Source: a virus (taxonomy: Duplodnaviria; Caudoviricetes). Taken from it: a DNA stretch of 55,830 nucleotides. Positions 2,787-48,843 of this stretch are shown piece after piece. The notes beneath the pieces were generated by a model. The model was not told the DNA's origin. It saw only the letters and a program-made list of their open reading frames with translations, and did not search any database. Within the stretch, counting starts at the first letter, position 1. Each line of letters opens with the position of its first letter. Both the position numbers and the translations under genes were made by a program. Where the stretch lies: the IMG/VR virus record IMGVR_UViG_3300048818_000025, positions 1 to 55,830 of that record; one strand, 5' to 3'.

Positions 2787-2788
2787 GC

Positions 2789-12959: not shown

Positions 12960-12973
12960 GGAATAGGTCAAAA

Positions 12974-13675: not shown

Positions 13676-14211
13676 TGCCTTCATTGCAAGACCTTCTAGC
13701 TGCTAAAGGCGCTCCTGCTATGCCTCCGCAGGGCCAGCAGGCTATGCCACAGCAACCCATGCAAGGTGGCAATCCTCTTGCTCAACTCGCTCCACAGCAG
13801 CAGCAACCTCCTCCGCCGCCACCGGCTCCTACCCATGCGCAGACCGTAGCGGCAGTTCATTACTTTGGGCAAATCAAACAAGCCATGAGGCCAGTATTGG
13901 ACGATCCTAATCTGGGATCAAAAAACATTCGTCCTAAGCTGCTCGATCAATTCTCAAAGCTTATCGCGTCAAAGACGTTGACACTTCCTGAGATTATGAA
14001 AGCCATCAAGTCACTTCCTGATGATCCAATACAGCAAAAATCATTCGTGGAAAATATTTATCAGGCCAACGACAAGGCTCAAATGCTAGTGCTCGGCCAT
14101 CACGCTATGGGACCGCAAGCACAGCCGGGCCAAGAGCCTGAACAATGGTCGCCTGATAATCATCAGGATCAAATGGCTGGTTTGATGCAGCAATATGGTG
14201 GGCAGCGGTAA
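13675..14211 (+). CDS. Gln/Pro-rich putative internal virion protein
   Basis: Coupled (TAATG) to the downstream ejection gene. Confidence 0.6.
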   Translation: MPSLQDLLAAKGAPAMPPQGQQAMPQQPMQGGNPLAQLAPQQQQPPPPPPAPTHAQTVAAVHYFGQIKQAMRPVLDDPNLGSKNIRPKLLDQFSKLIASKTLTLPEIMKAIKSLPDDPIQQKSFVENIYQANDKAQMLVLGHHAMGPQAQPGQEPEQWSPDNHQDQMAGLMQQYGGQR

Positions 14212-15545: not shown

Positions 15546-17968
15546 TGGCTGATAACGACCTCTCTCCGCAAGATCGCGATATGCTTATAAGGACTGTGAT
15601 CGGGGAAGCTGCAAATCAGCCGCCTATCGGTCAAGCTGCCGTTGCTCATGTAGTTTTGAACCGTTTGAACTCTGGAAATTATGGCGACACGGCTTCACAG
15701 GTTGTCTTATCTCCACATCAATTTGAGCCTTGGCAAACTAGGACACAGGAACTTGCTACTATCCCGCGCACCTCACAGCAATATCAGGATATTGGTAAGA
15801 TAGTTGACGGGGCTGCTAGTGGTGATATTCCAGACCCTACGCAAGGGGCCACAAACTTTGCAAACGTTAAGACAGTTCAAGATCGTGGCAACACGAAAGG
15901 AATGAACTGGATTAACTCAATGACCAATCAAACCCGCATTGGCGATCACACATTCGGCAACGCCGATGGTCAGAAAGCTATAAACAAGGCGGCTAATATT
16001 CAGGATAGCCAACCTACAACGGCATTACAGTTTCAGGATGCTGTGCCGGACCATCTTGGCGCGCTTCTAAGTTCAAGTGGTGCTACGGATAATGTGCCAG
16101 CCGTAGCTTCTGACAGCACAACGCCGGACCATCTTGGCGAGTTGCTAAAAACCAATAGCTCTAAGCCACTACCTCCTGAGGGTTATTATGGCGGCAAGCT
16201 TCATATCAACATTACGCCCGGCGTTCCTCTATCGACCGAAGATAGCAGTGGAAATACCGTCTATATCCAACCGGGTGATCCGCGCTATCCTGTAGCCAAC
16301 CCTAATCCGAGTATGGTTCCTCAGATTGCCAAGGATTATGTTGGCCGCTTGAATGAACTTGCTGGGCAGAATGCCAGCATGGCCGGAGAAGGCCTAAGCG
16401 ATATTTCTCAAGGCAATGTGGCTACAGGGTCAGTCAAGGCGGGGCTTGGAGCATTGGGATATGTATTTTCTCCGGCCAGCGCGATAGATAAACCGATTGA
16501 AAACATTACTGGGAATAAAAATCTTGGAGAAATAGCGTCTCTTATAGGGCCGGGAACCCTATTGGGGAAAGCGGCAAATGCCGCGCGCCCTGCCGTTAGT
16601 GCCTTGTCGGATATTATCAAAGACGTTGGCGCTGAGAATATTCCGTCTATTGTCTCACGGCTTGAAAGCAATCCTAAGCTTACACTTATGGATGTAGCCC
16701 CGACCGTTAGAGGCAATGCCGCTGGTCTAGCGACAGACCCGCGCAACGTTCCGGCCATGAACCAACTCAATCAATTCCAGCAGGCTAGAATGGCTGATCG
16801 TTCGGGTGATGCTGTTAATATATTTGAGGATGCGCTTGGGCCAACACCTAATATGGCTGCTACTAAAAAAGAACTAACCCAATCCATTGCTGATGTAGGA
16901 AAGAAATTTGACCCGGTAATCGATAAAATTGGGCCGGTGGACATTACGCCTGTAATCAATAACATTGATTCTCAATTCCCTGCTTCAACACTTAATCAAT
17001 TGAAACAAAATAAATATGAAGGGCCTCAGTTATCTCCAGAATTGAGTAGACTATGGGAAATGAGAGAAAAGTTGAGGGGTAATTGGTCCGATAGAGAACA
17101 AATGTTTGCTAATGCGGCAGATTTGCATAAACAACAACGTGATCTTCGGCTGAAATACGGCAATAGTCGGGACCCAGGCTCTTATGAGGCGCGTCAAGTG
17201 CGCCGAGAAATCATTAATGCCATCGATGAAAAATCAGGTGGAAAATACAAACCTATTCAAAAAGAATACAAAGACGCCAACGATGTTGATAAGGCTTTTC
17301 AAGAAGGTTTCAGCGTATTCTCCAATCCGACAAGCGCAAAAGGTGCAATAGATAATCACCCTGACGTATGGCGTGAATGGATGAATGATGCTTCTGACAC
17401 TGAGAAACGCGCGGTCGCCCAAGGCATTCTATTCGGCGCTAACAATAAAATAATGAATACGCGACGTGGAATTGACGTTCCTGAGAACAGCTATGCCCAT
17501 GAACGAATAGCCTCTGTAGTTGGCAAGCCAAATGCTGATGAAATTGTGAGACGCCTAGGTGATTGGAGAGACATTGCCGAGACTGATAATCTCCTAACTA
17601 AAAACTCGGCAACTGCTGTTCGCCAAGCTGGTCAAGAGGCTCGGTCAGTGCGGGATGCGCGTTCAGGCCATGATATATTGCAAAGCCTTATGCCAGCAGC
17701 CGTAGTTGGTGGGGCGGCGCATTTGGCGTCTGGTGGCAGGGGACTACTAAGCGCAATAGCGGCTGGTACTGCCATAGGAGCAGGCAAGGCGGCTAATTAT
17801 GCCGGGAAGGCTCATGATCTTGCAAGTAATAAAGCCTATGCGCAGTGGGCGTCGGCTACAGGATCAAAGAAAGAGGATTTAATCACGGCCTTGCGCGCGA
17901 TGGCTGAGAAACAAAATCCCGGCAATCGACTTTCGACAAGCTCTATCTTGCAAGCTTTGCCACGCTAG
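15545..17968 (+). CDS. Large ejection protein with an N-terminal SleB-like (Hydrolase_2) cell-wall hydrolase domain
   Basis: RTVIGEA..Q...GQAAVAHVVLNR, QFEPW, DPTQGATNF, IGDHTF motifs. Confidence 0.85.
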   Translation: MADNDLSPQDRDMLIRTVIGEAANQPPIGQAAVAHVVLNRLNSGNYGDTASQVVLSPHQFEPWQTRTQELATIPRTSQQYQDIGKIVDGAASGDIPDPTQGATNFANVKTVQDRGNTKGMNWINSMTNQTRIGDHTFGNADGQKAINKAANIQDSQPTTALQFQDAVPDHLGALLSSSGATDNVPAVASDSTTPDHLGELLKTNSSKPLPPEGYYGGKLHINITPGVPLSTEDSSGNTVYIQPGDPRYPVANPNPSMVPQIAKDYVGRLNELAGQNASMAGEGLSDISQGNVATGSVKAGLGALGYVFSPASAIDKPIENITGNKNLGEIASLIGPGTLLGKAANAARPAVSALSDIIKDVGAENIPSIVSRLESNPKLTLMDVAPTVRGNAAGLATDPRNVPAMNQLNQFQQARMADRSGDAVNIFEDALGPTPNMAATKKELTQSIADVGKKFDPVIDKIGPVDITPVINNIDSQFPASTLNQLKQNKYEGPQLSPELSRLWEMREKLRGNWSDREQMFANAADLHKQQRDLRLKYGNSRDPGSYEARQVRREIINAIDEKSGGKYKPIQKEYKDANDVDKAFQEGFSVFSNPTSAKGAIDNHPDVWREWMNDASDTEKRAVAQGILFGANNKIMNTRRGIDVPENSYAHERIASVVGKPNADEIVRRLGDWRDIAETDNLLTKNSATAVRQAGQEARSVRDARSGHDILQSLMPAAVVGGAAHLASGGRGLLSAIAAGTAIGAGKAANYAGKAHDLASNKAYAQWASATGSKKEDLITALRAMAEKQNPGNRLSTSSILQALPR

Positions 17969-18079
17969 AAAACAATACCACAGCGCGGCAAACTTCGTCA
18001 CATACCAAAAATATCTAATGATGGGCCAGATTAACGGTTGCATGTACTCCCTTATGCCTAAAACACCGGAAAAGTCAAA

Positions 18080-21000
18080 ATGCTCGCTAGGATAATCTCA
18101 GGCATTCTCATCTATGTAATGGCCGTTACCCAAGTGGTAGCGCAGACCGCCACGCTATTGCCTAATGCCAAGCAGACTTTTCTAGGAACTACTGGAGCGC
18201 CGTTAGCGGCTGGTACGGTTACGCTTTACACGCCTAACTCAACCAATAAAAAGACGACTTGGGTTGATCCTAACCAAGTCTCTGCCAATACAAATCCGAT
18301 TAACTTGGACGCCGCTGGCCGGGCTATTATCTTCGGGCAGGGCAACTATCGCCAAGTTGTTAAGGACGTAAATGGCGTAACAATTTGGGATGCGTTTACA
18401 TCTGCGGTTGGTTCGGCTTCACCTTCCGGTTCTACGGGGACAGATACGGCTCCGGTTGGAACTGTCCTGCCGTATTCCGGGTTTGCGATTCCGACAAATT
18501 GGCAGTTGGCTTATGGGCAACCGTTAAATCGCGTCACGTTTGCATCGCTTCTGACCGCAATCACTATTTCCAATACAGCCGTATCATGCACGGCAACGTC
18601 AACGACCTTAACCGGATTTGCCAGCACGGCACAGTTTTCAGCCGGTGAGCCGATTGAGGCCACGTGCTTACCTGCCAATACAACGATTGCTTCGATAACT
18701 AACTCGACAACGATTGTCGTAAGTGCAGCGGCTATTTCTAGCGCTGCACTTACCGCAGTTGTGTTTCCATGGGGCAATGGCGACGGAAACTCAACATTCA
18801 ATGTTCCTGACTTGCGCGGGCGTGTTTTTGCCGGCGCAGATGCTATGGGCGGAACGGCGGCAAATCTTCTAACGGCGTCTTATTATGGAGCAAGTGCTGC
18901 GGCTCCAGGAATATCAGGTGGTTCTCAAAGTCACACTCTACTTCAAGCCGAGTTGCCAGCATTCAAACCGGCAATTACAATTACCGATCCTGGGCATACT
19001 CATCCTATTGGAGGAGGAGGAAATTCCGGTGGTGGCCTTTCTACCGCAATTAGTGGAACTATAAGCCAAACTAATAATACTGGCACTTCTACAACTGGTA
19101 TTACCGCCGCGCTCACAAGCAATCTTGGTTCTGGAACGGCCCTAGCAATAATTCAGCCTACGCTCACCGTCAATTACATCATCAAGGTTGCGCCTAATGC
19201 TTCTGGCGCAGGAGGCGTTGTTTCTATCGGAGGAATGTTTGGGGATATTATTTGCGATGCGACTTTCCTTTGTACCAATCAAACTATTGGGTTGGCAACT
19301 CAGTTAACCGGGACAATTCTGGCTAATATTGGTGCGTCCACAATGACGCCAACTGCCGTAACATTAAGTAATATTATGGATGATACTTGTGGCTCTTCAC
19401 AAGGTGATATTTTCTATCGTGGTCCGTCAACATGGAATTGCTTGCCTCCAGGAACGGCTGGCTTTGCTCTTTTAACGCAAGGAGGCGGCACAAGTCCTTT
19501 ATGGGGACCAACTGCAACTAGCGATTCTACGGCAGTTAAAGCCCCGGCCCAAATTGCAACGACCGGAAGCAATATAACTCTTTCTGGCGAACAGACGATT
19601 GATGGAGTTCTAACCAATTTCTCTCGCGTCGTTGTTAAGGATCAAAGTATTTCTAGTCAAAATGGTATTTACAATACATCTCCTGGTACATGGAACAGAT
19701 CGACAGACGCCAACACAACTGGTCAACTTGTAACCGGAACTCAAGTATTTGTGACATCTGGTACTGTCAATGGGCAGAAGTTCTTCGCAGTCACTTCTAC
19801 TAATCCAATATTTATTGGAACATCATCTATTAATTTAGTCCTTTACACAGGAAACGTCATATCTAATGGTGGTACTGCGGGACAGATTGCGCTATTCAAC
19901 GATCCACAGCACATCTACGGCGTGACCGCGCTAACGACTGTTCTCAACACGCAACTTGGCACTACCTACACAGTTCAATCGACTGACCAAAATTCTACTA
20001 TTGCTTTCAGCAATAGTAGCCCTTTTGCTATAGCCCTCCCTCAAGCTGGCGGCCTATTCCCAACTGGATGGGCCATTACACTTTTCAACATTGGTACGTC
20101 GAACGCAACTATTACGCCAGCAACATCGACAATCAATGGTCTGACTTCGCTCATTCTCCAACCATCCGATTCCGTCACCCTTATTTCAGATGGCACAAAT
20201 TACAAGGGTATCATCTCGCCTGGCTATCTTTCGACCATTAATGCTGTGGGCGGAAGATTAGTTGTTTCATCAGGGTCCAATACTGCATCTCCAACATATA
20301 CGACCGCTGGAACTGGCGTTATTACTGCCATTAGTAACAACGTAAATACAACAGGTGGTATTGCTACATACCCGATCAATATATCGGCCCCAATCAACGC
20401 TCAAACCGGAACGACCTACACAGTCTTGTCCACGGATAACGGAAAACTTGTAACCTTCACGAATGCGTCGCCCATTGCAATCACATTACCAGCGGCGACA
20501 GGATCATTTGGGAGCGGATTTGCCACGACCCTATTCTGCCTCTCGACCAGCACGGGATCATGCACGATCACGGCGGGGGCAGCCGTAAATAATAACACCA
20601 CCATTGTCTTGCAGCCTGGCGATTCGATCTACGTCGAGTCAAACGGGTCAATCTACGTCGGGACCGTTTCTCTGGGTTATATGCAGCAGATCGCGGGGAA
20701 CAGCACGCGGATATTGACGGCTCCAGCTACCAACGGTATCTCGCCGTCTTACTTCACAGCCGCGACCGGCGTTCAGACTGCGCTTGGCGTGAGCATTGGG
20801 TCTGCTGGGTCTTTTGTTGTGAATGGTGGCGCGTTGGGCACCCCATCATCTGGCACCGGAACAAACATTACCGGCATCAGCGCTTCGAACGTGACTTCGG
20901 GATCACTCCCCGTTGCGCAGCTTGGCGCGAGCGCGGCATCACATGCCTCACTGATAGATGTTGGTGGAACGGCAACGTGGAAAGTAATACCGGACTGCCT

Positions 21001-35635: not shown

Positions 35636-36213
35636 ATGGCAAACTCACCAAAGCGAGATAATGAAACGCAAAGTTCCTATGTGATCCGTCTCATTCAAGA
35701 GGAGGAGCGCGAGCGGTGTGCTAAGATTGCAGAGAATTGGGCTTATCCTCCGGTTGAAACTGCCTCTGGAATTGCCGCCGCTATTCGCAAGCAAGTCTCT
35801 TAACAAATCCAGACTGACAAAATGATTATAGTTGCTTGCAAATGTGGATGGGAAGGCGACCAAGAACTATTGGTTGAAGTGAAGGGCTGTGACGGCAAAT
35901 ACTGCCCTCATTGTGGCAAATGGTTTGCAAGGTGGCCTGCAAGGGCAATAGTCATGGAAGATATGAGAGACGCCACGGGAGAGTTCAAATGACCGCAGCC
36001 TCCTTGCGCGAAATGGCCTACCGCATGTGTAATTGGAGCGCATACGATCTGATTAAGGCTGGTGTGCTGGTCGCGGATAGCAAGGGTGAGCCAGCAGTCG
36101 GCGGATCGGACTGGAAACGCTTCAACATCGACCCTTGGACATTCATCATTAAGCTGCCGGACGACCGACTTGCAAATCTCGCATCACTCATCGATGCGCG
36201 GACTATAAAATAG
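35636..36213 (+). CDS. Small genes 35636-35803, 35822-35992 (CxC/CPHC zinc finger), 35989-36213
   Basis: Coupled ORFs; EERERCAKIAE motif in the first. Confidence 0.55.
35796..35819 (+). repeat. 24-bp direct repeat, copy 1
   Basis: TCTCTTAACAAATCCAGACTGACA; 22/24 identical to 38255-38278. Confidence 0.75.
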
Positions 36214-37387: not shown

Positions 37388-38080
37388 CGTACAATAAAAC
37401 TGCACCGCGTTACTAAGCCGGGCCGGTTGACTGCCGTCCATTGCTCAGACTTGCCGCGTACAAAATCGACGCATGGCGAAATTGGGCTTTACGATATGCC
37501 AGGTGATATTATCAAGGCCCATATAGAAAACGGGTGGACCTACCACAGCCGAATTACTGTCTGGAAAGACCCTGTAGTGGAAATGCAGCGCACCAAGGCG
37601 CTAGGGCTGCTCTATAAGCAGCTACAGAAAGACGCTACGCGGTCTAGGCAGGGGATGCCGGACTATGTTTTGGTGTTTCGTAAGACCCCGGACGTAGAGC
37701 AGTCCAGCGACCCTGTGGGGCAGGATGCGGCCCATTTCCCGGTTGACCAGTGGCAGCGTTGGGCTTCCCCGGTTTGGATGGATATTAACCAAACCAATGT
37801 CTTGAATGTCCGTATGGCGAAAGAGGACAAAGACGAAAAGCATCTATGCCCGTTGCAATTAGATTTGATCGATCGGGCAATTTACCTTTGGACCAATCGA
37901 GACGATATTGTTCTTTCACCTTTTATGGGCATTGGGTCTGAGGGTGTCATGGCCCTTAAATGCGGGCGTAAATTTGTTGGTGCCGAGCTTAAGCAGTCCT
38001 ACTACCAGCAAGCTATCAAGAATTTAGAGTTTCAGGAATCTGAAAGTGCCGGAGGGGATTTGCTGACAGGTGCAGCGTGA
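37388..38080 (+). pseudogene. N4/N6 DNA methyltransferase, 5'-truncated
   Basis: KPGR..AVHC, WKDP, HLCPLQLD, VLSPFMGIGSEG present; catalytic SPP(F/Y) motif absent; in-frame stop at 37340. Confidence 0.7.
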
Positions 38081-38262
38081 CGCCGGAACGAAAAGTTGAA
38101 TCTGCTTTAGATAATTGGTTTCGCGGCGAAGGATGGACGCTAGATATTTCTGGCGGCGATCACATCGCCAACCAATTCTATGATGATGAAAGTGACGAAG
38201 GATACGAGATTAGCTTGAACTTGACCGAGCTAGCCAAATCAATCGTCACAGAAATCTCTTAA
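38077..38262 (+). CDS. Hypothetical acidic protein
   Basis: GTGA overlap with the methylase stop. Confidence 0.55.
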   Translation: MTPERKVESALDNWFRGEGWTLDISGGDHIANQFYDDESDEGYEISLNLTELAKSIVTEIS

Positions 38263-38278
38263 CAACTACAGACTGACA
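38255..38278 (+). repeat. 24-bp direct repeat, copy 2, abutting the island's left end
   Basis: TCTCTTAACAACTACAGACTGACA. Confidence 0.75.
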
Positions 38279-38284
38279 GTTGGC

Positions 38285-38954
38285 CTATTTTAATAGAATT
38301 GTGAGTGCTATGGTAAACAATCCGCAAACTATGAACCATTCCGCTGCTGCGCTTTGCATATCGGCCTATTCTGACTTAAGGGCAGCGACGGCAATGCGCC
38401 TCGCTCTCACCCGGCAAGCTGGCTTGTAGCTATCCTCTTTTCGGTCGCGTAGAGGCAGGTCCGCGATCTTCTGCAACGCCTTCCGCAACCGCGTCACGGT
38501 CAAGGCTAAATGCACTATGCGTTCCTGGCGCGTCACGGCGGGGTAATCCTACTGCTTGACCTTCTCAAATCGAAGGCTGTGGAATTTAGCAAATTCGGCG
38601 ACGGCTTTCAGGTTAGGCAAGTCAACGTCCGCATTCTGCACAGCACCAGTCCAGACCTTATTCGAGCGGCCATTGCCATGCTGGTCGCAAGCGATTAGCT
38701 CGCCGCATAGGCGCTCGCCTTCATAAAACCGAACCGTTGTGCATTCTTGGCGCGGCATTGGGCTATTCCTTCAACTTTAGAAGTGCATTGAGACAAGCGT
38801 TAAGTTCAATCTCGTCGCGTTCCGTCCATGGGGCCATTCCGTAATTGAATGTGCAAACTTCTCGATCCCATGAAGCGTGGATAGTGCGCCGATTACGATC
38901 AGGTTTGCCACCAAGTAGCGTCTGCAATACAAAATATGGCGGCAGCGTAACCAT
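38285..38954 (-). CDS. Left-array genes 38285-38359, 38366-38536, 38549-38758, 38763-38954
   Basis: Each ends in TAG within a junction motif, with the next start 4-12 nt later; the two leftmost read by hand. Confidence 0.6.
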
Positions 38955-38971
38955 CGGCGGGGCCTCTATAT

Positions 38972-39307
38972 TCAACGGGTGGGTGGTGCTGGTAGCAGCA
39001 TCCAATAAGTCGGATTTACGAGGGACAGCAATTCAGCTTCAAGCGACCCCTCGTACCAGCCAGCGGGGGCGAAATCGCCGTCCTCGTCGTAGTCATGCTT
39101 TGGTAGGTCGTCGCGATACTGCGCGTGCATGGACCGCCACTTGCCGAGCGAGTTGAAAAACCCGACCAGCAACAGCCGATCCTTCGGCGCTGTCTCAATC
39201 GGTTTCCACTCGTCGCTTTTGGCTTTTCCGGGTAGCTGGCAAATATCGGCAACGTCATGATCGTGTTGCAGATGATCGCTCAGTTGTGATGCTAGCGTTT
39301 CGGTCAT
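38972..39307 (-). CDS. DUF551-like protein
   Basis: WKPIETAPKD...PTYWMLLPAPP. Confidence 0.7.
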   Translation of the reverse strand: MTETLASQLSDHLQHDHDVADICQLPGKAKSDEWKPIETAPKDRLLLVGFFNSLGKWRSMHAQYRDDLPKHDYDEDGDFAPAGWYEGSLEAELLSLVNPTYWMLLPAPPTR

Positions 39308-39317
39308 GGCTGCGGGC

Positions 39318-39780
39318 CTATTTCGCTAGGTTTTGGATTTGCGTTTCTAGGTGGCGCACATCGGCCTCGCAGCCGCACGCCTTGGCATCGGCAAGCTCTT
39401 TAGTGAGCCGATTTAGCTTGGCCTGTTTTCGGTCCTGTGCGGTCATTTTCGGGCCTATTCTAACTGATCGCGGAGGTCGCTGACGGCTTCCGCTTCCGTC
39501 TTGCCGTAGCCAATGGGGCGGCCCGGCTCATAGCCATCCTCAACCGCCGACCAATCAAACGATCTTATCGGAATTGGTGGATAAATATGGGCGGTGACTA
39601 TTTTCATGCCGCCATTTTCACCTTCGCCAAAATGGCCTGATTGGTGAGTTTGACATTCAGCTTAAGGTTATTTGTTGCGAACGATAGGGCTGCGGGAAGC
39701 GTCCAAAATCCCAATTCATCGCCCCGCTCTGAAATCTTGAGGAACCAGCAGTTGTTCCGGTAATCAATGGTGGTGGTCAT
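39318..39780 (-). CDS. Left-array genes 39318-39446, 39455-39607, 39604-39780
   Basis: Read by hand; TAGGCCCG junctions at 39318 and 39455. Confidence 0.6.
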
Positions 39781-39808
39781 TTGTGCTCTCCGTTTCCGAT
39801 AAATATAC

Positions 39809-39829
39809 AATACGCCAATTTGGCGTATT
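39809..39829 (-). promoter_or_regulatory. Perfect palindromic operator inside a leftward promoter
   Basis: AATACGCCAA-T-TTGGCGTATT between TTGCAA and TATATT, just after the HTH gene. Confidence 0.7.
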
Positions 39830-39837
39830 TGCAATAG

Positions 39838-40047
39838 CTATCTGCGCAACTTTATTGCTTTCTTTTGGAGCCTGTTTAGGGCCATCCGGTCCTTACCAAC
39901 GGCCAGCAAAACCATAGAAACGGCCAGTGGTGGGCCTTCTGAAGCCCAACGCTGGCCGCTGCGGGCGCTGGTGCCAAATAGCTCGCCTGCAGCTTCCTGG
40001 GTAAGCCCAAGGGCCTCAATACGGCTGCGGTAGGCTTCTGGCGACAC
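39838..40047 (-). CDS. XRE-like HTH regulator, homologue of 27710-27904
   Basis: MSPEAYR..IEALGLTQ..AGELFG...RSGQRW. Confidence 0.75.
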   Translation of the reverse strand: MSPEAYRSRIEALGLTQEAAGELFGTSARSGQRWASEGPPLAVSMVLLAVGKDRMALNRLQKKAIKLRR

Positions 40048-40053
40048 GGCGGC

Positions 40054-40314
40054 CTAATCTAACAGGGTTAGAGTTTCGCGGGCCTTGGTAAGACAGCCCT
40101 GCATATCGGTGTGGTGTTCGGTGATCCATTCCAGCGCATCCTTCGCCGCGACCAGCCTCATATCGCGCTCCATCACAAGATCAGCAATCTCGGCCTCGAC
40201 TTGCTTGCGCTCGGTAGCTATTGCGCCAGCGACCTGATCCCTCAACGCGCCGGAATGAGCCGCGACTATCGCGTTAGCCTTGTCAAAATCCTCGTTGTGG
40301 ATAGCTACGGGCAT
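40054..40314 (-). CDS. Hypothetical protein (array gene)
   Basis: Bounded by junction motifs on both sides. Confidence 0.6.
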   Translation of the reverse strand: MPVAIHNEDFDKANAIVAAHSGALRDQVAGAIATERKQVEAEIADLVMERDMRLVAAKDALEWITEHHTDMQGCLTKARETLTLLD

Positions 40315-40329
40315 TTCGGGCCTTATTTG

Positions 40330-40785
40330 TTAGATTGCTTCGCCAATAATCTCACGCTCAAGAGCGCCGTATTTTTCATCGTCACCGACGACTTGGCCCT
40401 TGAGCGCGACGATCCACCACCGCTCACCTTTCCACTTTGGCGGAATAAGTGTGGCGTGGAGAGTGCCTTTTTTGCAGAGGTCGAGCGGCCCAGGCGAAGT
40501 GTGAATAACGCCGGGCGCTGGCGTCTCGACTTTAACACCGCCGTTTGCCGGGGAGCCGTCCGGGTTAGACCGCCAGAACGCAATCTTGGCACCGTCCCGC
40601 GTTAGTTCGTTCATGCGTTTCTGCTGGCGCTCGTTCCACTTGGCGGCGAAGTAAGCAATACAGGACTGCCAATAGTAGCCGTCGGCGGAGCCGTCGCCGG
40701 AGCCGTAGCCGTAGCCGTAGCCGTAGCCGTCGCCGTTTGCCGGGAAGCCGTCCGGCAGCTTACCTTGCAGGACTACCGGGACCAC
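40330..40785 (-). CDS. GYG-repeat protein, paralogue of 49578-50201
   Basis: GDGYGYGYGYGSGDG; TLHATLIPPKWKGERWW shared. Confidence 0.75.
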   Translation of the reverse strand: MVPVVLQGKLPDGFPANGDGYGYGYGYGSGDGSADGYYWQSCIAYFAAKWNERQQKRMNELTRDGAKIAFWRSNPDGSPANGGVKVETPAPGVIHTSPGPLDLCKKGTLHATLIPPKWKGERWWIVALKGQVVGDDEKYGALEREIIGEAI

Positions 40786-41075
40786 GGCGCGGCCTCCCAA
40801 GCAACAGCCGCTGCGGGCGTAACTTCGGCAACGCAGGTAATATCCCGCAGTTCAATATCTGCCGCAGGCCCGACGCGAGCGCCGTCAACCGGCCCCATTG
40901 AAGCTAGGCCGAGAAAGCCCTTATTCGCAGTCGGCCACGAAATGCAGTTACGGGCGGCGCGGAGCTTAATCATCACGCCGTCAGTCTTGATCGCGTAGCC
41001 GAAGAACACGCCCCGGTGCGAGGTTGTGACCAGCACGGCGCGTTCGTTCTTTTTGCGGTTAGGGTGGTTTACCAT
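40773..41075 (-). CDS. Conserved phage protein, paralogue of 49282-49590
   Basis: RAV.VTTSHRGVFFGY...KGFLGLASMGP...GPAADIEL. Confidence 0.75.
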   Translation of the reverse strand: MVNHPNRKKNERAVLVTTSHRGVFFGYAIKTDGVMIKLRAARNCISWPTANKGFLGLASMGPVDGARVGPAADIELRDITCVAEVTPAAAVAWEAAPWSR

Positions 41076-41128
41076 CTTGGCTCCTATGCCCCTGAATGCC
41101 GAGGCGCACATTGCCCGAAGGTTCGGGC

Positions 41129-41302
41129 CTACTTTGACTTCGGTGGGGTATCGAGTTCGGTTCGCAGCGCATCCATTTCCGTCACCAGCGCCTCGATACG
41201 TTTGCGCGTGGTGCCGATGTAGGTGTCCTTGTACGTTGGCGACTTGAGGTAGTGGCGAAGGCCCTCTACCGCGTCAAACAGCACATCCGAAACCATCGCC
41301 AT
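41129..41302 (-). CDS. Small protein divergent from the recombinase
   Basis: GGGAG RBS; ends at the innermost TAGGCCCGAA junction. Confidence 0.6.
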   Translation of the reverse strand: MAMVSDVLFDAVEGLRHYLKSPTYKDTYIGTTRKRIEALVTEMDALRTELDTPPKSK

Positions 41303-41310
41303 ATCTCCCT

Positions 41311-41376
41311 GTTGACCGTATATAGGCAAAGCCTTGACAACTTGTCAATAGCCCTATACGCATAGTTGACAACTTG
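41311..41376. promoter_or_regulatory. Island central divergent promoter and candidate recombinase-binding region
   Basis: Palindrome TTGACAA-C-TTGTCAA (41334-41348); TTGACAACTTG repeated at 41334 and 41366. Confidence 0.7.
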
Positions 41377-41388
41377 ATAGGGTTCGGA

Positions 41389-42033
41389 ATGTCCACCGAT
41401 TTACTGCCAAAAGGGTTTTTAGTCGGCTATGCGAGAGTTTCCACAGAAGATCAAAAGCTCGACCTCCAGCTTGATGCACTTAGATCAGCCGGGGTGCTAC
41501 CTGATAATTTGCACGTCGAAAAAATCTCAGGCGCTTCCGCTAAACGTCCGGCTCTTGATCTTGCTATTAAAGACCTTCGCCAAGGCGATACATTGGTCGT
41601 GTGGCGCTTGGATCGTTTGGCCCGAAGTATGCGCCAACTCTACATGCGCCTCGACCAAATTTACGCAAAGGGGGCGAATTTCCGAAGCATTACGGAAGCC
41701 TTCGACTTCGGCACAGTCAGCGGCAAATTCGTCCTCGGAATCCTGGGACTTGTCGCTGAGTTTGAACGCCAGATCATCGCCCAAAGAACGTCAGCAGGCA
41801 TCGCGGCGCTCAAGTCTCGCAAGGGCAAGGAATACAAGTGGGGACGTACATTGCACATGACACCGGAGCGCGTGGCGCTCGTTGGGGACTATCTCAACGG
41901 TCGCAATGGCAAGCCACAGTTGAGCGGACCGAAGATCGCCGCGAAGCTCAAGGTTTCTACGGCCTCAATCTATGGGTATTGGAAACAGGCAGGCAAGGGC
42001 CGGTTCACTCGCCGGAAAGCTACGCCGAAATGA
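41389..42033 (+). CDS. Small serine recombinase (resolvase/invertase family)
   Basis: GYARVSTEDQ..DLQ..AL, GDTLVVWRLDRLARS, AEFER..I..RT..G; C-terminal HTH (IAAKLKVSTASIY). Confidence 0.95.
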   Translation: MSTDLLPKGFLVGYARVSTEDQKLDLQLDALRSAGVLPDNLHVEKISGASAKRPALDLAIKDLRQGDTLVVWRLDRLARSMRQLYMRLDQIYAKGANFRSITEAFDFGTVSGKFVLGILGLVAEFERQIIAQRTSAGIAALKSRKGKEYKWGRTLHMTPERVALVGDYLNGRNGKPQLSGPKIAAKLKVSTASIYGYWKQAGKGRFTRRKATPK

Positions 42034-42551
42034 CCGAAAGGCTTTACGTGTACGTCGCAGAAAGCTCCAAGGGCTTAATCAAGATCGGCTTCTCGGCTAA
42101 CCCGAAACGCCGCGTGAAGTATTTGAGCGGAACCGTGCTTCATGCACACCGTCCGGTTACTTTCTTGCGAGCTAAGCGCATGGACGCAATAGCTGCATAC
42201 AAGGTGGAAAAGTTCACTCAGTACCTTCTAGCCGAACACGCAGCCCCTATGACTTACCCCGGCCTTGGGCCTTCGATGGAGTGGTTTCAATGCTCACAGG
42301 AAGCCGCCTTTAAGGCCCTAAGAACCGCCGTTCGTTGCGTGCAGAACGCAACAGAGTATTTCGGGCATGATCGGTTTAACTGGCGGCGAGCCGTGCCGTT
42401 TATAAAGGCACGAAAAGGATTGGTGTTGCCGCATAAATTCGACATGTGGCTTACTCGGCAAATCGAACTATCTAAGGGCGAGCGCCTTGATGCGATGATT
42501 GATGTTCAACGTAAGATGCACAATCTATGCGCTACGGCGCAGAACAATTAG
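42030..42551 (+). CDS. GIY-YIG / T5orf172-like protein
   Basis: YVYV......IKIGFS.NP..R...L and EWF motifs; ATGA-coupled to the recombinase. Confidence 0.75.
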   Translation: MTERLYVYVAESSKGLIKIGFSANPKRRVKYLSGTVLHAHRPVTFLRAKRMDAIAAYKVEKFTQYLLAEHAAPMTYPGLGPSMEWFQCSQEAAFKALRTAVRCVQNATEYFGHDRFNWRRAVPFIKARKGLVLPHKFDMWLTRQIELSKGERLDAMIDVQRKMHNLCATAQNN

Positions 42552-42560
42552 GAGACTGGC

Positions 42561-44008
42561 GTGGCCGACGTGAAGCTCACAGAACTCGAACCGCAATGGC
42601 TCACGCGGGACGGCAAGCGCGTGGGCGTGATATTTCGCAATCCGTCGCCAGAGCATCGGAAGTGGCGGGTGACTTGCTTCGCTGCGCCGACGCCGAATGA
42701 CGATCAAGAGGCAATCGTTCACGCGGCTGTCGGGGAGACGGATATGTGGCAGGGCTGCAATCCGGCGTCGGGCTGGAAATTTGAAGGCGGTATAGACGGC
42801 GCTACATTCGAGACGCTGACAATCACGCCTTCGCTCGATGGTGGTCAGCATTGGTGGCACGGATTTGTTACCGGCGGGGTTTGCAGGTGAGCGACAAGTG
42901 CCACATGTGTGGGAGGCCGCCCTCGGAACATTCTTGGGACACCCGCTCCATATGCAACTTCTATCTCGGCGCGGCCGGGTCAAATCTCACGAAAGACCAG
43001 GAGGACGCAGTCTATGCCGCATATCTCGGCATCTGCTTTCTTCAAACGATGTGCCGCAGAGTGAACCTGAAACTTGGTGAGCAGCGTGCACAAGAATTGC
43101 TTACCGAATTAGGCGTCGCCTTCCCGTTCATTCCCGAACGGGTCGGTTTGTCCGCCTTACGTTGAATATGCAGGAGTTTAGCGTGACGATCAAAGAGGCA
43201 ATAGAAATTCTCACGGAAGAAGTGGTTGCGCGCAAGACGAGCCCGAATAGTTGTTCGGAAGAAGTTACTCAGGCAATTGAAACGCTTTTGTCCGTCATCA
43301 CACAGAAAGCTTAGGAGAATTTTGCTGTGACCGTAGCAACCGATTTTAAGCGCGCCTACTTGCAAGAAAACAAACGCGCCAACTATGCCGAGGGCGCGCT
43401 GCGCAACATCGTTCTGGCATGGAACAAACTCAAGCCCGGCAATTACTCCAAGGACGTATGGGAAACGTGGCTGGAAGAAACTCTCAAGCCTGCCGTAGTG
43501 GCTGGCGAGGTTGCGCTGACTGTTCTAAATAATCAGCGAAAGAATTAGGAGTTTTTAGATGGCGTGGACCGCAAAGCAGAAGGCCGCGTTCAAAAAGGAA
43601 CGGCGGAATTTCAGCGCCAAGACCTATCTCAAGGTCAAGAAGGAATTTGACCGGCAACGCAAGCTGCCGCGCAACGCGCCTGTCTGGTACATGAACAAGA
43701 CTGAATGGAACGCAATATCGTCGGCGCTCAAGATTGCTGCCGATCACTCTAAATAATTAGGAGCCGAGGCGGTGTACGAGAAAATGAGTGCCAGCGAGAT
43801 TGTTTTGCAAGCCCTCATTTGGGGCGAGGAAAGCATTACCGAAATGATAAACGGCACCCATGAATCAGAACCGCACCGCGCCGAATTGGTCGAGTTGCGA
43901 AGGCAGATGCGAGTTTACAGGAAGCGGCGTTACGGCAAGCCGGTTGATCCCTTCGCAAACGCCAAGCTTGTCAGCGCCTTTGATCTGCCCATTACGAAAG
44001 AGGGATAA
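42561..44008 (+). CDS. Right-array genes 42561-42890, 42887-43165, 43183-43314, 43327-43548, 43559-43756, 43772-44008
   Basis: Short ORFs separated by (T)TAGGAG junctions; the first has an LT.TPS....WHG motif. Confidence 0.65.
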
Positions 44009-44009
44009 C

Positions 44010-44792
44010 GTGGTTTCTCCGGTTCCAAAGCACCTACGCGCCGATGACGAGTACGACGCTATCGCTGGCGAGCTGCGAGATCATCGGTATGGCCTAGAGG
44101 TTGACCGATCAAAGGGAGTTGACCTTCCCGGCATCGGCGCGCACCGCGCCAAGTACGCGCCCGGCCTTGCAACGGCACTCTTGGCGCTGGCCGGGACCGA
44201 TGACGTTGGCGACCCGATGTGCGGGACCGGGACGCTTGGACGAGAAACCGGGAAGCTAGTTGCCCTGAACGACATTGATTACGGCATGTGGAATTTTTTG
44301 GAGCCTCTTGGGAAAAATGGGTGCCAAGTCACGTTTGGTCCCGCTACCGAGATTAAGTGGCGGCGCGAAGTCTGCATCTTTTCGCCGCCGTATTATCCGA
44401 AGGCCGATCGCTGCAAGCCGTGCGCTCACAATGACGCGAGGCGCGGCCCGGTCGTCGGCTTCCGTGATTCCTATTCTGGCGACCATCCTCAATTCGTCGG
44501 CAACCCCGGCGGCGTGAACGCTATTCTAAAATATCGCCAGCAGATGACCGCGATCTATGACCACCTTAAAACGGTCTGCGACCGCATGATTGTAGTCACA
44601 AAAAACTGGACGCGGCTTGGCGTGGAAATGCGCCTCGACCTCGACACGATATTGATGGCGCAATCGGTCGGCTGGTACTGCGAAGGGCGGAACGGATTTG
44701 AGCCGTCGCCGTCTTTGTGGTCGCGCTACAATAAGCAACGCGGCGGCGGTGTCACCGTCGAAGATGTGTTGATGTTCTCGAAACCCCGTTGA
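44010..44792 (+). CDS. SAM-dependent (N4/N6-type) DNA methyltransferase-like protein
   Basis: DPMCGTGT SAM-binding motif, NDID, then FSPPYY catalytic motif. Confidence 0.75.
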   Translation: MVSPVPKHLRADDEYDAIAGELRDHRYGLEVDRSKGVDLPGIGAHRAKYAPGLATALLALAGTDDVGDPMCGTGTLGRETGKLVALNDIDYGMWNFLEPLGKNGCQVTFGPATEIKWRREVCIFSPPYYPKADRCKPCAHNDARRGPVVGFRDSYSGDHPQFVGNPGGVNAILKYRQQMTAIYDHLKTVCDRMIVVTKNWTRLGVEMRLDLDTILMAQSVGWYCEGRNGFEPSPSLWSRYNKQRGGGVTVEDVLMFSKPR

Positions 44793-44809
44793 AGAATTAG
44801 GAGAATTTA

Positions 44810-44998
44810 ATGCGCTGGCGTCACAAGAAGCGCGGAACGACTTACGAGGAAATTGGTCGCGCCAAGCTCCAAGCCTCTGACACTGGCGGTATGGGCGACC
44901 ATCATCCGATGGTAGTTTATCGTGGTGAGGATGGTCAGCTTTGGGTGCGGCCAGAAGATGAATTTGAAGATGGCCGCTTCGAGCGGCTGGTGGATTAG
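44810..44998 (+). CDS. DUF1653-like small protein
   Basis: WRHKKRG..Y...MVVYR...GQLWVRP..EF.DGRFE. Confidence 0.7.
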   Translation: MRWRHKKRGTTYEEIGRAKLQASDTGGMGDHHPMVVYRGEDGQLWVRPEDEFEDGRFERLVD

Positions 44999-45007
44999 GA
45001 GTTTGAA

Positions 45008-45649
45008 ATGGCTACCAACACCCCGTTCTATCCCGGCGATACTCACTGGTCCTACGTCAAGCGTTGGGCGTGGCTGATGTGGGTGCAGTATTGGTCGCCG
45101 CTCGGGTCGAGCGTCTCGACGCAGTATGTTTGTGCAGTTACCAAACCAAAGGAACTGAAAAATGAAATACTTGAACGACAAGTGCCAGCGTTGTGCCAAC
45201 AGCCGAGGACTTCACGCCGCCGTCATCAAGACTAATACGCAACAGCGATGGCCGCTCGTGTGCGAAGCGTTCAAAGAGGCTGATGAGAATTAGGAGAATG
45301 AAACATGCGCGTCGAATTTACTTGGTCTAAGTGGTGCGTCCTATTCACACAGCAGCCGACGCCATCCGGTCTTGATCGGTGGTTTACAATCGGTCCGGCC
45401 CATTTTCGGTGGACCGCCAAGCAACTTCGCCCGCTGTCATAGGCGGTCAGTCCCCGTCGCCCGGTGAAGAAAGCCGGGCACCGTTTGAATTTAGAGGAGT
45501 TTGCCGTGGTCATAGAAAACATTGGCCTTGGCTTCCACTGGCATAAAATCAGACACGCCTATAAAGAATTTTACGATATGTGGTCAGGATATTGTAGCGG
45601 ACCAAGTGAGTGCGTGTGGATTGTGCCGGGAACGGCACTAGAGGACTAG
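45008..45649 (+). CDS. Right-array genes 45008-45235, 45162-45293, 45305-45442, 45506-45649
   Basis: Partly read by hand; TAGG junctions; the last is a paralogue of 51618-51776. Confidence 0.55.
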
Positions 45650-45846
45650 GAACGACCATGCCGATCACGTCAGAGCAGCGCGAAATTCGCAATCTGAAAA
45701 AACACCTTCGCGGGCTGACGGCGCAGGTCATGGAGACGATTGCTAGGATAGACAGGATTATGAAAATTCCGGAAGGACCATTGCGCGGCAAGATGATTGC
45801 CGAGGCGACGAACGCGCTGGAAATGACAAATCATGCTTATCCGGTT

Positions 45847-46917
45847 TCAACATGCAGGCTCTAGCGGTTGATGTGTTCCATGACTGACATTCGGGTGCGT
45901 CCACTCGCCGCTATACAGCCCGTCATAGGTCGGGCTTTCGCCGTTTGCGCCGATGCCCAAGAGCGAGCGGAAGGCATTGAATGGGTAGAAGCGGCGATTG
46001 AACCGGAAGGTAAATTCGTTGAGGTAGGCTTGCAGGTGCTTCGGCTCGACGCGCCCGTGGTGCGTGCCTTGCAGCCAAGCTTTGAGGTTGCTGAAAACAA
46101 GGTGAACGATAGGCAGGTATTCTTCGGCAACATCGGGCTTGTTGGACTCGACCACGGGCATGTGAGCGTAGCCGCGATCAGCAAGCGAGTTGTAGCCGCC
46201 CCAAGCGTCGGTAACGACCATGTTGGACGTAGGATCAACCGCAGCCTCTACAAAGCCGCACAGCGACTTGGCGGTACGGTCGGGGGCGATTTCCAGCCTG
46301 AGACGGCCAGCATATCGGCCACCGCGCCGCATGGGCTTGTCGCCCTTCTTGGCCGGGCGCTGCCGAACCTCGACGGCGGCGACTACGAGCGTCTTGTCGT
46401 CGGCATGGGGACCTTTGCCCTCGCCCCGCGTCACGCCGCCGATGTAGGTTTCGTCAATCTCGATATGGTCGCGGCCCGAAATGCTGCCACCGATCCGGTC
46501 GCGGTCTTGGCGCACCATACCGGCTCGCAGCTTGTGCAGGATGCCGAAGGCGGTTTCGTATCGGGTAAGGCCAAGCTGGCGCTGAAATTGAACGGCGGAC
46601 AGGCCGGGCGTCATGCTGGAAATGAGGTAAGCCCCCCAAAACCAAGTCGTCAGCGGCGTATGGGTGCGTTCCATGACCGTGCCGACCGTCAGGGAGGTTT
46701 GCTTACGGCATTTGCGGCAGGCCACCACATGCGGACGCGCCGCAGAACAGTACAGCGGCTCGCCAATGGCCTTGCAGTGCGGGCAGCGGAAGCCGTCAGG
46801 CCATTTTGCGCCTTCCAGATAACGAGCGCAGGCCGCGTCGTCAGGGAACAGCTTTTGGAACTGCGGCAGGGACTTGGGGAATGGCAGTTTTTCCCATTGG
46901 TGAATGTCTTGGATCAT
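45847..46917 (-). CDS. IS1595-family DDE transposase
   Basis: Zn ribbon CPHC..CRKC; IEIDETYIGG, VVTD, HLQAYLNEFTFRFNRR. Confidence 0.95.
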   Translation of the reverse strand: MIQDIHQWEKLPFPKSLPQFQKLFPDDAACARYLEGAKWPDGFRCPHCKAIGEPLYCSAARPHVVACRKCRKQTSLTVGTVMERTHTPLTTWFWGAYLISSMTPGLSAVQFQRQLGLTRYETAFGILHKLRAGMVRQDRDRIGGSISGRDHIEIDETYIGGVTRGEGKGPHADDKTLVVAAVEVRQRPAKKGDKPMRRGGRYAGRLRLEIAPDRTAKSLCGFVEAAVDPTSNMVVTDAWGGYNSLADRGYAHMPVVESNKPDVAEEYLPIVHLVFSNLKAWLQGTHHGRVEPKHLQAYLNEFTFRFNRRFYPFNAFRSLLGIGANGESPTYDGLYSGEWTHPNVSHGTHQPLEPAC

Positions 46918-46920
46918 GGC

Positions 46921-47181
46921 CTATTTTCCTGTTTTGGCCTGATAAGCGTCGGCGGCGTCGGACGGGTTGTATCCAAGGTCTTGATATTCAGCCAAGCCGC
47001 GCCGTTCCTCAGTTGTGATGACGTGGCCGGGGTTACGGTAGTCCAAAAGCGCCTCGCAAGCATCGCCGACCCACAACATGCGCTTCATGCTGAGTCCGCT
47101 CATGCGGACGTTCCCGAGCTTGTTGACCATATCCTGATGCGCCGGGCCGTGCCCCTCATGGTGTTTCGAGGTACTTGCCAC
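46921..47181 (-). CDS. IS passenger gene
   Basis: Inside the TIRs, upstream of and co-oriented with the transposase. Confidence 0.65.
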   Translation of the reverse strand: MASTSKHHEGHGPAHQDMVNKLGNVRMSGLSMKRMLWVGDACEALLDYRNPGHVITTEERRGLAEYQDLGYNPSDAADAYQAKTGK

Positions 47182-47182
47182 G

Positions 47183-47479
47183 TTAGCCTACCTTTCCGGC
47201 AGGATCGGCTATGCGATCCTTTAGCTCGCCCGGTTCAATCGTGGAGTCCTCATGGCTCCAACTATGGCCTGCCCAGTCCGCGACATACCATTTTGTGCCG
47301 TCGCCCGGCACGGTGCGGTCGAGCTTTACCATCGAGCCGTCATGCGAGACAAAAACCTGTTCGGGCGCTAGTTCATCGCGTCGAGCGTACCAGTCGGTCG
47401 TTTTTCCTACGGTATCCACGCCCGTTTGATGGGCTATGCCGCCTCGCGGATCGCTTCCGTGTCCTTTTGCGTCTTTCAT
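47183..47479 (-). CDS. IS passenger gene
   Basis: GGGAG RBS; starts MKDAKGHGSDP. Confidence 0.7.
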   Translation of the reverse strand: MKDAKGHGSDPRGGIAHQTGVDTVGKTTDWYARRDELAPEQVFVSHDGSMVKLDRTVPGDGTKWYVADWAGHSWSHEDSTIEPGELKDRIADPAGKVG

Positions 47480-47813
47480 GTTCAACTCCCGTTAACTACG
47501 AGCCTTTCGGCCTCTGCAATCTATATAGCACTAGTAGGTGCATGTGTCAAGCGGATAAGCATGTGACAAATGACGGCGCGCGGTACTTTGGCCTTGGCGT
47601 AGATTTCCGCAAGGACCGCAAGCCGGGCCGAGACAACGCACCGCCGAAATTTCGTGAAATGCGCGGTATCTTGAAGTCACAATAGGAGTAATCCGTCGAT
47701 TATAACCACAGACAGCGCATCGGCGGCTAAGTGAGTTTGTCTTGCGGTGTTAATGGTCTTTACATCTATTAGTAGCGATTGTGCGGCGTAAAAAACTACG
47801 CTAGAAAAAATCA

Positions 47814-48195
47814 GCGCCGCGCAGGAGGTCTATTTCCTGGCGGCGCAGACCCGAATTGATGCTTGGCGGCTGAAACTCGGGCCAATGACTTAAGAACTAT
47901 ATAGCCTGCGGGCTAGTTCCGGTCAAATCATAAAATCCATGCCGCCAGAAGCCGCCAGAAGGCCCGGGATGCATTTATTTGCATTCTAGGCTCTCGTAGC
48001 AGGGGCGGAACGTGCAGGGTGTAGGGGCGAGGCCCCAACTTGGATGTGCGGCTACGGAAAAGGCCAAGTATGGCTGACGGGACGCTCGGCTCCATTGAGC
48101 AGAATCCTAAGCCACTTCCTCTTGCCTTCCATTGGTTTCCAATGGGGGTAAGGGGGGTGTGGCTTCCGAACACTCTCACCATTGAGCAGGATTAA
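47814..48195 (+). ncRNA. Candidate structured non-coding element upstream of the HNH gene
   Basis: Several stems; long hairpin 48109-48165 relying on G-U pairs; no convincing + strand ORF. Confidence 0.35.
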
Positions 48196-48201
48196 GTAAA
48201 G

Positions 48202-48843
48202 ATGAAAGCTAGAAATAAGAAAGAGGCTGCGATAGTAGTTATTACTAATGCAGCTTTAGTTAATAAAATTGTTGGCGTTAATTTTTCCGATAAATGTAAA
48301 TTATTGGCTCAAAAATACTGTTTTGAATGTCCGATAGTATTAGCTTCAAATCACGCGACCGGAATGGTTACAGCGGATGTAATTGTTTTTGCAACAATGA
48401 TTGCTAAGGAAATCCAGAAGGATTTTCCAAGTTGGTGTCGGCGAGCTTTAGATCATTTAGAAGATAAGGTGGCAAAGCCTTCGACAAAGAGAAAAATAAG
48501 ATTTTTTGAAAAATCAACTAATCCAAATGCGGCCCCAAGCCAAAAGAAAATTGATAATTTTTATGGGTCTTGGGAATGGAAAAGATTGCGGTATGATTTT
48601 ATAAAAAAGAATATCAGAAAATGTAAATGCTGCGGTGCCACACCTGATGATGGCATATCAATTAACGTCGATCATATTAAGCCAATTAGGCATTATTGGC
48701 ATTTGCGCACCAAGGAATACAATCTCCAAGTACTTTGTGCAGATTGCAATATGGGAAAAGGAAGCCGCGATGAGACGGACTGGAGGGGAGATAGGATAGT
48801 CTCTCTTGACTTAATTCGGGAACAACTAAAACCAAGGGGATAA
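48202..48843 (+). CDS. HNH endonuclease
   Basis: FY.SWEWKRLRY...CKCCG...VDHIKP...NLQVLC.DCN.GKG. Confidence 0.88.
   Translation: MKARNKKEAAIVVITNAALVNKIVGVNFSDKCKLLAQKYCFECPIVLASNHATGMVTADVIVFATMIAKEIQKDFPSWCRRALDHLEDKVAKPSTKRKIRFFEKSTNPNAAPSQKKIDNFYGSWEWKRLRYDFIKKNIRKCKCCGATPDDGISINVDHIKPIRHYWHLRTKEYNLQVLCADCNMGKGSRDETDWRGDRIVSLDLIREQLKPRG

Follow-up and report, generated by a model that had tools for sequence, protein, structure and literature searches.

Why should the borders between unrelated small genes of a phage operon be spelled, over and over, with the same few letters? The question is raised by IMG/VR record IMGVR_UViG_3300048818_000025 (Duplodnaviria; Caudoviricetes), a tailed-phage genome available as one contig; the window analyzed here is this whole record of 55,830 bp. 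Gene calling, together with Pfam and PHROGs searches, delineates within a GC-rich module, here called the island, an operon of 15 tightly packed genes on the plus strand (41389..45864), at whose junctions the word AATTAGGAG and its variants recur. An earlier note on this DNA, made from the letters and their open reading frames (ORFs), read the word as a recombination scar that also provides translational coupling for each new gene. Four observations (how the junctions are built, a motif count well above chance, no paralogy between the island proteins, and one gene relocated with both of its joints inside the motif) lead us to propose, as the probable explanation, a portable translation-start joint that gives short homology for the shuffling of gene cassettes.

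The exact word lies at 42546, 43543, 43755, 44795 and 45288, always on the plus strand and nowhere else in the window, and a sequence count confirms these positions as the earlier note had given them. The variants that it listed are likewise all present, namely GCTTAGGAG at 43309, GATTAGGAG at 44993, TGCAGGAG near 43172, TTAGAGGAG near 45490, GACTAGGAAC near 45644, CAATAGGAG at 47680 and TCATAGGCGG near 45437; of these, TCATAGGCGG, with a 63-nucleotide (nt) gap after it, and GACTAGGAAC resemble the motif only loosely. At nine of the 14 operon junctions GGAG stands 6-9 nt upstream of the start, and seven of these junctions read TTAGGAG, six ATTAGGAG and five AATTAGGAG. In five of the seven copies the upstream gene terminates, in frame, at the TAG of TTAGGAG, in agreement with the claim that the motif usually doubles as stop codon and Shine-Dalgarno site; in the other two the upstream stop falls 4 and 8 nt before the Shine-Dalgarno site.

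Taken along the plus strand, the first exact copy (42546..42554) supplies with its TAG at 42549-51 the stop of the T5orf172-domain gene and places GGAG 6 nt before the GTG at 42561. A looser junction, TGCAGGAG (43172..43176), has GGAG 6 nt before the GTG at 43183, the upstream TGA at 43163-65 lying 8 nt before it. The variant (GC)TTAGGAGAAT at 43311..43320 stops a gene of 43 amino acids (aa) with the TAG at 43312-14 and has GGAG 9 nt before the GTG at 43327; it forms the left border of a mobile cassette, the right border of which is the second exact copy, within AGAATTAGGAG (43541..43551), where the TAG at 43546-48 stops the cassette gene g6 and GGAG precedes the ATG at 43559 by 7 nt. At the third copy (43755..43763) the upstream gene has already stopped at the TAA at 43754-56, and the GTG at 43772 follows GGAG at a distance of 8 nt; at the fourth (AGAATTAGGAGAAT, 44793..44806) the methyltransferase-like gene has already stopped at the TGA at 44790-92, and the distance from GGAG to the ATG at 44810 is 6 nt. 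The earlier observation that the full motif is retained past an earlier stop at these two places thus stands. The variant GATTAGGAG (44993..45001) stops the DUF1653-like gene with the TAG at 44996-98, GGAG being 6 nt before the ATG at 45008, and the fifth copy (AGAATTAGGAGAAT, 45286..45299) stops a 43-aa gene with the TAG at 45291-93, GGAG being 8 nt before the ATG at 45305; this last copy is the point at which g6 is inserted in a relative. The form shared at 44793 and 45286 is the longest common one and belongs to the repeat family D2, as does the second copy. Another looser junction, TTTAGAGGAG (45490..45499), has GGAG 6 nt before the GTG at 45506 and an upstream stop 54 nt away. Three junctions are without the motif and are overlaps or near-abutments (ATGA at 42030, GTGA at 42887 and TAA/C/GTG at 44006-44012), one is a 74-nt overlap (45162-45235) and one reads TAGGAAC. 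The earlier note had also counted the copy at 47680 among the gene boundaries: CAATAGGAG (47680..47688, plus strand) is indeed present near the right edge of the module, but its TAG at 47683-85 is the original stop of a gene starting at 45658 that is split by an insertion sequence, and no start codon follows. Similarly, the statement that the motif forces unrelated proteins to end in N or D holds for three proteins ending in N and one in D, and fails for one ending in A.

At the motif junctions the gap from stop to next start is 8-17 nt. The motif keeps its place with respect to the start that follows but not with respect to the reading frame before it, and this is how a ribosome-binding site behaves. 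Of the 15 starts of this operon, 12 have a Shine-Dalgarno core before them, as do 7 of the 13 starts of the divergent operon on the minus strand and 25 of the 70 starts outside the GC-rich module. In keeping with the coupling proposed in the earlier note, GGAG is always at a working distance of 6-9 nt from the next start and the upstream stop is within or just before the Shine-Dalgarno site; from this anatomy, which is not itself a test, we infer that the motif would act as a ribosome site that couples the translation of adjacent genes.

The number of copies is well beyond chance. Window-wide, AATTAGGAG is observed five times against 0.32 expected, and 0 of 100 shuffles reach five; within the operon the expectation is 0.011, and 0 of 1,000 dinucleotide shuffles reach five. 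The shorter TTAGGAG occurs seven times in the operon against 0.14 expected, with 0 of 1,000 shuffles reaching seven. Once TAGGAG is given, the probability of AAT before it in at least five of the seven copies is 2.9e-8 from the trinucleotide frequencies of the operon, and P is still ~1e-4 when the null is made as permissive as possible, with the bases before GGAG restricted to A or T and any of the 32 words allowed. Elsewhere AAT is the last sense codon of just 4 of the 104 genes called, and the 16 TAGGAG sites of the window outside the cluster are preceded by 15 different triplets, none of them AAT. A distant phage relative that shares the methyltransferase and a few other genes (L106/L121) has, in the 12.8 kb of L106, six plus-strand TAGGAG sites with six different preceding triplets, and the relative L113 uses TGAGGAG. 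Duplication of genes as the source of the repeated joint was rejected, as all-against-all BLASTP of the 28 island proteins found no pair with E < 0.01; given this lack of paralogy, the joint was not spread by tandem duplication.

The motif also coincides with joints in natural relatives. Positions 41300-47750 were compared with Logan contigs from four further metagenomic runs, one of permafrost, one of lake water and two of peat, chosen from 22 listed. In one of these runs, X2, a contig (record 10; 2,474 nt, depth 7) follows the order 44994-45289, 43311-43540, 45286-45823 and 47564-47713, with no difference from the window in the first segment, six in the 230 nt of the second, and none, apart from one 6-nt insertion, in the third. 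Consequently the gene g6 (43327..43548, plus strand; 73 aa, no known family), which in the window lies between 43314 and 43559, is found in this relative between the gene ending at 45293 and the gene starting at 45305. Both joints fall inside the motif: at the joint from 45289 to 43311 ten letters fit either side and read TTAGGAGAAT (43311-20 and 45290-99), and at the joint from 43540 to 45286 eleven letters fit either side and read AGAATTAGGAG (43541-51 and 45286-96). The moved g6 is 2.6% diverged and its new flanks are identical to the window, as expected of a piece that would have come from another lineage. To the left of 44994, a position inside GATTAGGAG, the same contig carries 1,184 further letters unlike the window, and it ceases to fit the window at 47713. 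A 576-nt contig of a further run (X11, record 2) fits 42348-42554 with two differences and is then unlike the window for 369 nt, 42554 being the last G of the first exact copy; contigs of run X9 fit 43312-43551, also with six differences, and the window from 44997 onward, with unlike letters beyond. Thus a joint or a point of divergence is present in at least one run at five of the seven TTAGGAG copies, the remaining two being without contig cover, and the recombination at joints that the earlier note had envisaged is borne out by the relocated g6 and by the divergence at 42546-54 and 44993-45001. The uncovered operon parts in X2, X9 and X11 (e.g. 42596-43243 and 43676-44755) are no evidence of gene absence. 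We take the contig assembler to use 31-mers, and repeats of 10-14 nt do not lead such an assembler astray.

In light of these observations we posit that the core TTAGGAG would serve at once as the TAG stop of the gene on its left and as the GGAG Shine-Dalgarno site of the gene on its right, with A/T-rich flanks that lengthen it at most to AGAATTAGGAGAAT. A cassette would then consist of a small gene with its own spacer, start and stop between two copies of the joint. Since the borders of unrelated genes share 9-14 identical bases, a crossover inside the joint is possible, and co-infecting related phages, or copies within one genome, could cross over within these bases such that a whole gene is inserted, lost or moved while the reading frames stay intact. 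The incoming gene would gain a ribosome site and close coupling to the gene preceding it, and, because each insertion would duplicate the joint, the operon would come to display one house word. We infer that such crossovers reflect ordinary short-homology recombination rather than the action of a dedicated enzyme.

Several points weigh against this proposal. A stretch of 9-14 nt is very short for homologous recombination, and a recombinase of the Red-beta, Erf or RecT type was not recognised among the 61 proteins outside the GC-rich module (PHROGs, E <= 1e-5). A study of phage lambda describes recombination joints between diverged sequences, some of them in identical blocks as small as 2 bp (PMC2327257). 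The relocation rests on one depth-7 contig from a single run, the supporting contigs from the three other runs are short, and ends of low-depth contigs are not breakpoints in themselves. Furthermore, the joints were taken from alignment tables and the shared letters were read off the window sequence. Relatives of g6 form three clusters with six sequences besides that of the window, at 82-95% identity and all ending in ...NQRKN; P0121 and P0125, both 95% identical, are encoded on contigs of 4,636 and 4,675 nt. Two of these homologues, P0122 and P0127, differ from the window over the first ~13 residues, at the protein level only, which suggests that at least some exchanges of g6 terminate within its coding sequence rather than in the motif. 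Finally, a close relative of the operon was not found in phage, viral-contig or genome collections: nucleotide searches with 40000-48000 and 1-20000 against 50,697 phage records gave no match, a single-protein query with the methyltransferase gave no relative among viral contigs or, by tblastn, in phage records, its profile found none in genome contigs, g6 gave in viral contigs one 17-residue match of no use, and the T5orf172 gene gave no match there.

For the methyltransferase-like protein the context of homologues was compared along the lines suggested in the earlier note, by which similarity should end at the junction and native stop contexts should differ. In the protein collection 144 sequences are related to it at E <= 0.001, with 53-90% identity among the 120 matches listed, and a profile built from 34 of these led to 22 loci, 20 of them with a readable stop and 15 of these distinct, the rest being duplicates. 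The motif is absent from the 45 nt that follow the stop in all 20, and the 22 loci encode none of the other 27 island proteins. The gene in the window keeps the usual C-terminus of the family and its own stop. Similarity does not reach beyond the gene, and the homologues have stop contexts of their own, as had been anticipated; on its own, this result is also expected from fast-evolving spacers.

The alternative closest at hand is that the word has arisen by convergent selection for a ribosome site only, as the best start sequence for the host, with breakpoints located there since viable recombinants break between genes. In its favour, the motif is placed strictly 6-9 nt before starts, overlaps of stop and Shine-Dalgarno site are common in relatives (the six TAGGAG sites and the TGAGGAG mentioned above), and the same 9-mer is found in unrelated AT-rich phages. 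Two copies 190-220 nt apart occur at 103 loci in viral contigs (median GC 0.34; several are tandem repeats), none of which is related to the island by tblastx, and the exact 14-mer AGAATTAGGAGAAT occurs at at least 118 loci, with a median GC of 0.35 and no encoded island protein among the matches listed. In one contig from IMG/VR (L005, an unrelated AT-rich phage of 31% G+C), AATTAGGAGGTTCAAATGGA stands four times, within 322-1320, at the starts of small, similar genes that form a chain; the same 9-mer joint arises elsewhere too. Nevertheless, the five bases before GGAG are identical in five of the nine junctions, far beyond the A/T-rich null, and AATTA is kept in two copies whose TAG is unused as a stop. 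Selection for a ribosome site alone does not explain this AATTA. Moreover, the joints of the relative lie within identical stretches of 10-11 nt, and the moved cassette is diverged between identical flanks. The sister operon, too, repeats a word of its own: (A/T)TAGGCC occurs six times in the divergent operon against 0.67 expected, with 0 of 1,000 shuffles reaching six, and TAGGCC is a poor match to a Shine-Dalgarno site, such that the two house words fit descent or copying of joints better than a single ribosome optimum. Taking these together, we regard convergence on its own as unlikely. The retention of the word where TAG is no stop could also be accounted for if AAUUA were a signal at the RNA level, lying 5' of each ribosome site, such as an RNase E-type cleavage site or the operator of a translational repressor, a role that would be compatible with one in recombination. 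The consensus of RNase E-type sites is RAUUW, or RN↓WUU, and AAUUA or GAUUA fits it in six of the seven copies. This consensus is short and A/U-rich, so the match is weak evidence, and the reading leaves the joints of the relocated cassette unexplained; we hold it to be quite improbable.

A different class of explanation invokes a dedicated enzyme. The operon is headed by a gene for a serine recombinase (41389-42033) of the invertase/resolvase type (PF00239, 2.9e-38; PHROGs 'DNA invertase', 3.8e-53), and a fixed word with TA at its centre borders the cassettes, one of which has moved; the enzyme might accordingly capture and move cassettes at the junction word in the manner of an integron, which likewise has an array of promoterless cassettes behind a recombinase gene, read from one end. 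The junctions, however, have no dyad symmetry, with 8-12 of 24 positions matching against a mean best of 11.7 in random operon windows, and their conserved part, at only 9-14 nt, is both too short and too asymmetric for an attC site, which is an imperfect inverted repeat tens of bases long. Inverted half-sites around a central dinucleotide, as in sites of the res, hix or gix type, are absent from the junctions; a palindrome of this kind lies upstream of the recombinase gene and is the likelier binding site for the enzyme or a regulator. This perfect palindrome, TTGACAACTTGTCAA at 41334-48, is followed 32 nt on by a third half-site, TTGACAA at 41366, within a 90-bp divergent control region, and the region 41334-41372 may be an operator or a res-like site. 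With regard to the IntI integrase of integrons, the only recombinases in the Pfam scan of 22 island ORFs are the serine recombinase and an IS1595 DDE transposase, with no tyrosine integrase, the other genes of the phage having been scanned against PHROGs only. We therefore find recombination at the junction word by the operon-head enzyme very unlikely. Equally far-fetched in our view is a new type of cassette capture in phages, in which the serine recombinase would read an asymmetric word of 11-14 nt, one per operon, to insert and excise promoterless genes; if true, it would be a serine-enzyme analogue of the integron, the site of which doubles as stop codon and ribosome-binding site. As for the earlier reading of the motif as a recombination scar with coupling, its recombination and its role as a joint are supported, while nothing shows the scar of a dedicated recombinase.

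Returning to the proposal of a portable translation-start joint, the nearest known parallel is offered by the PeSL of T4-type phages, which the consulted portions of Arbiol et al. 2010 (PMC2839356) describe as conserved elements of ~100 bp, comprising a promoter, a stem-loop and a Shine-Dalgarno site, that flank ORFans and recombine, with documented crossovers between the Shine-Dalgarno site and the -10 box. On that description the two share a conserved regulatory sequence between unrelated small ORFs and a recombination that moves whole ORFs and leaves them expressed. They differ in that the PeSL has a sigma-70 promoter, an A/T-rich tract and a stem-loop, each cassette being its own transcription unit, whereas the joint described here is 9-14 nt long, its cassettes are cistrons of one operon, and the phage is P22-like by its portal and not T4-like. 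A consensus scan yielded five promoter-like sites in 38000-48300 against 6.0 expected, none at a junction; the gaps of 8-17 nt leave no room for a stem-loop, and 0 of 15 terminator-like hits fall at a motif copy. On the other hand, copies flank unrelated ORFs, there being no paralogy, and one ORF has been moved between copies, both joints of the relocated cassette lying in the motif. The present joint is therefore not a PeSL, but it would work like one at the level of translation and not of transcription. A looser likeness is to the 'short conserved boundary sequences' of the modular theory (as cited in the section consulted of PMC3029335, refs 21, 22), in which short homologies at module borders are the proposed crossover points; the sequence found here differs from those in being explicit, in its repetition five to seven times in one operon and in doubling as stop and ribosome site.

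Overlap of a stop codon with a Shine-Dalgarno site, with translational coupling, is well established in compact operons. The junctions resemble these cases in having the upstream stop inside or just before the Shine-Dalgarno site and short gaps; in ordinary cases no word beyond the Shine-Dalgarno core is needed, whereas here five further bases are identical across unrelated genes. A full-text literature search found no description of such a Shine-Dalgarno joint, which is not proof of absence. It is a long-standing question whether the mosaicism of phages arises via short conserved linkers or by random illegitimate joining followed by selection, and to our knowledge explicit linkers have rarely been identified. 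In this operon a linker of only 9-14 nt can be written down letter by letter; it is secure on statistical grounds, and it falls at real joints found in a natural population. Such a joint would solve the expression problem of an incoming gene by supplying the stop, the ribosome site and the coupling. If general, joints of stop and Shine-Dalgarno site could delimit exchangeable accessory genes in uncultured phages, for instance candidate anti-defence cargo like the orphan methyltransferase, and they would represent a natural design for swappable cistrons.

The genomic setting of the operon is that of a tailed phage with a P22-type portal protein, the best match of which is a Pseudomonas phage portal at 44% identity, and with PHROGs matches for terminase, scaffold, major head, head-closure, tail, replication-initiation and antiterminator genes. 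The best DNA match among the 22 public runs listed is a peat metagenome, and none of the public runs listed is an RNA run carrying this genome. A search of the window for tRNAs and Rfam families returned 0 tRNAs and 0 families at gathering score, and a known RNA family or tRNA at the junctions was rejected on these grounds. From ~38.3 to 47.7 kb the G+C content is 54-58%, against ~49% elsewhere in the phage, and TAG stops make up 17 of 27 in this module against 17 of 70 elsewhere (Fisher P = 7e-4); the module looks like a segment of different origin from the rest of the phage. Its contents are a pair of divergent small-gene operons and, after them, an insertion sequence; the module (38300-47713) is flanked by a methyltransferase/helicase-like gene (37496-38080) on one side and by the HNH and replication genes (from 48202) on the other. 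A 27-nt direct repeat (AAGTCTCTTAACAAATCCAGACTGACA, 89% identical) is present at 35793-35819 and 38252-38278, after the stops of two plus-strand genes, its second copy being at the left edge of the module.

In addition to the serine recombinase, the plus-strand operon encodes a T5orf172-domain protein (Pfam, 1e-8), a methyltransferase-like protein of 260 aa with a weak Pfam match (PF01170, 3.4e-4, below the curated cut-off), a DUF1653-like protein, also a weak Pfam match just below the cut-off, and 11 small ORFs without a known family, among which a 109-aa gene falls in an unnamed PHROGs family and the remaining genes have no Pfam or PHROGs family. The ORFs 45008-45235 and 45162-45293 overlap in different frames by the 74 nt noted above, which represents either a long overlap or an unreal tail of the first ORF.

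The gene starting at 45658 is split by an insertion sequence of the IS1595 family (45832..47563, minus strand), recognised from Pfam matches, terminal repeats and an empty site in relatives. It has terminal inverted repeats of 25 nt (21/25 matching), an 8-bp target duplication, TGACAAAT, a transposase of 356 aa (PF12762, PF12760) and two extra ORFs inside the element (46921-47181 and 47183-47479), and in the contigs of X2 and X9 the uninterrupted site is seen as 45823 joined to 47564. Relatives of the transposase are mostly in metagenome-assembled genomes of Alphaproteobacteria, at no more than 77% identity, which is only a hint that the host range might lie there.

The divergent operon (38285..41296, minus strand) has 13 small genes, 10 of which stop with TAG. 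Its junction word extends to (A/T)TAGGCC(C)G, and the last copy (38282-38288) is without a gene after it, like CAATAGGAG at 47680 on the opposite edge of the module. Directly after the TAG of the first minus-strand gene is a hairpin, GCCCGAA-CC-TTCGGGC (41112-41127, minus strand), which begins with this junction word. Also inside the operon, a perfect 21-nt palindrome, AATACGCCAAATTGGCGTATT, followed by a T-rich run (39809-39829, minus strand), is terminator-like or perhaps an operator, and a 12-nt tandem repeat at 40675-40735 encodes a Gly-Tyr/Gly-Asp run (GYGYGYGYGSGDGSADGYY) near the N-terminus of a 151-aa minus-strand protein.

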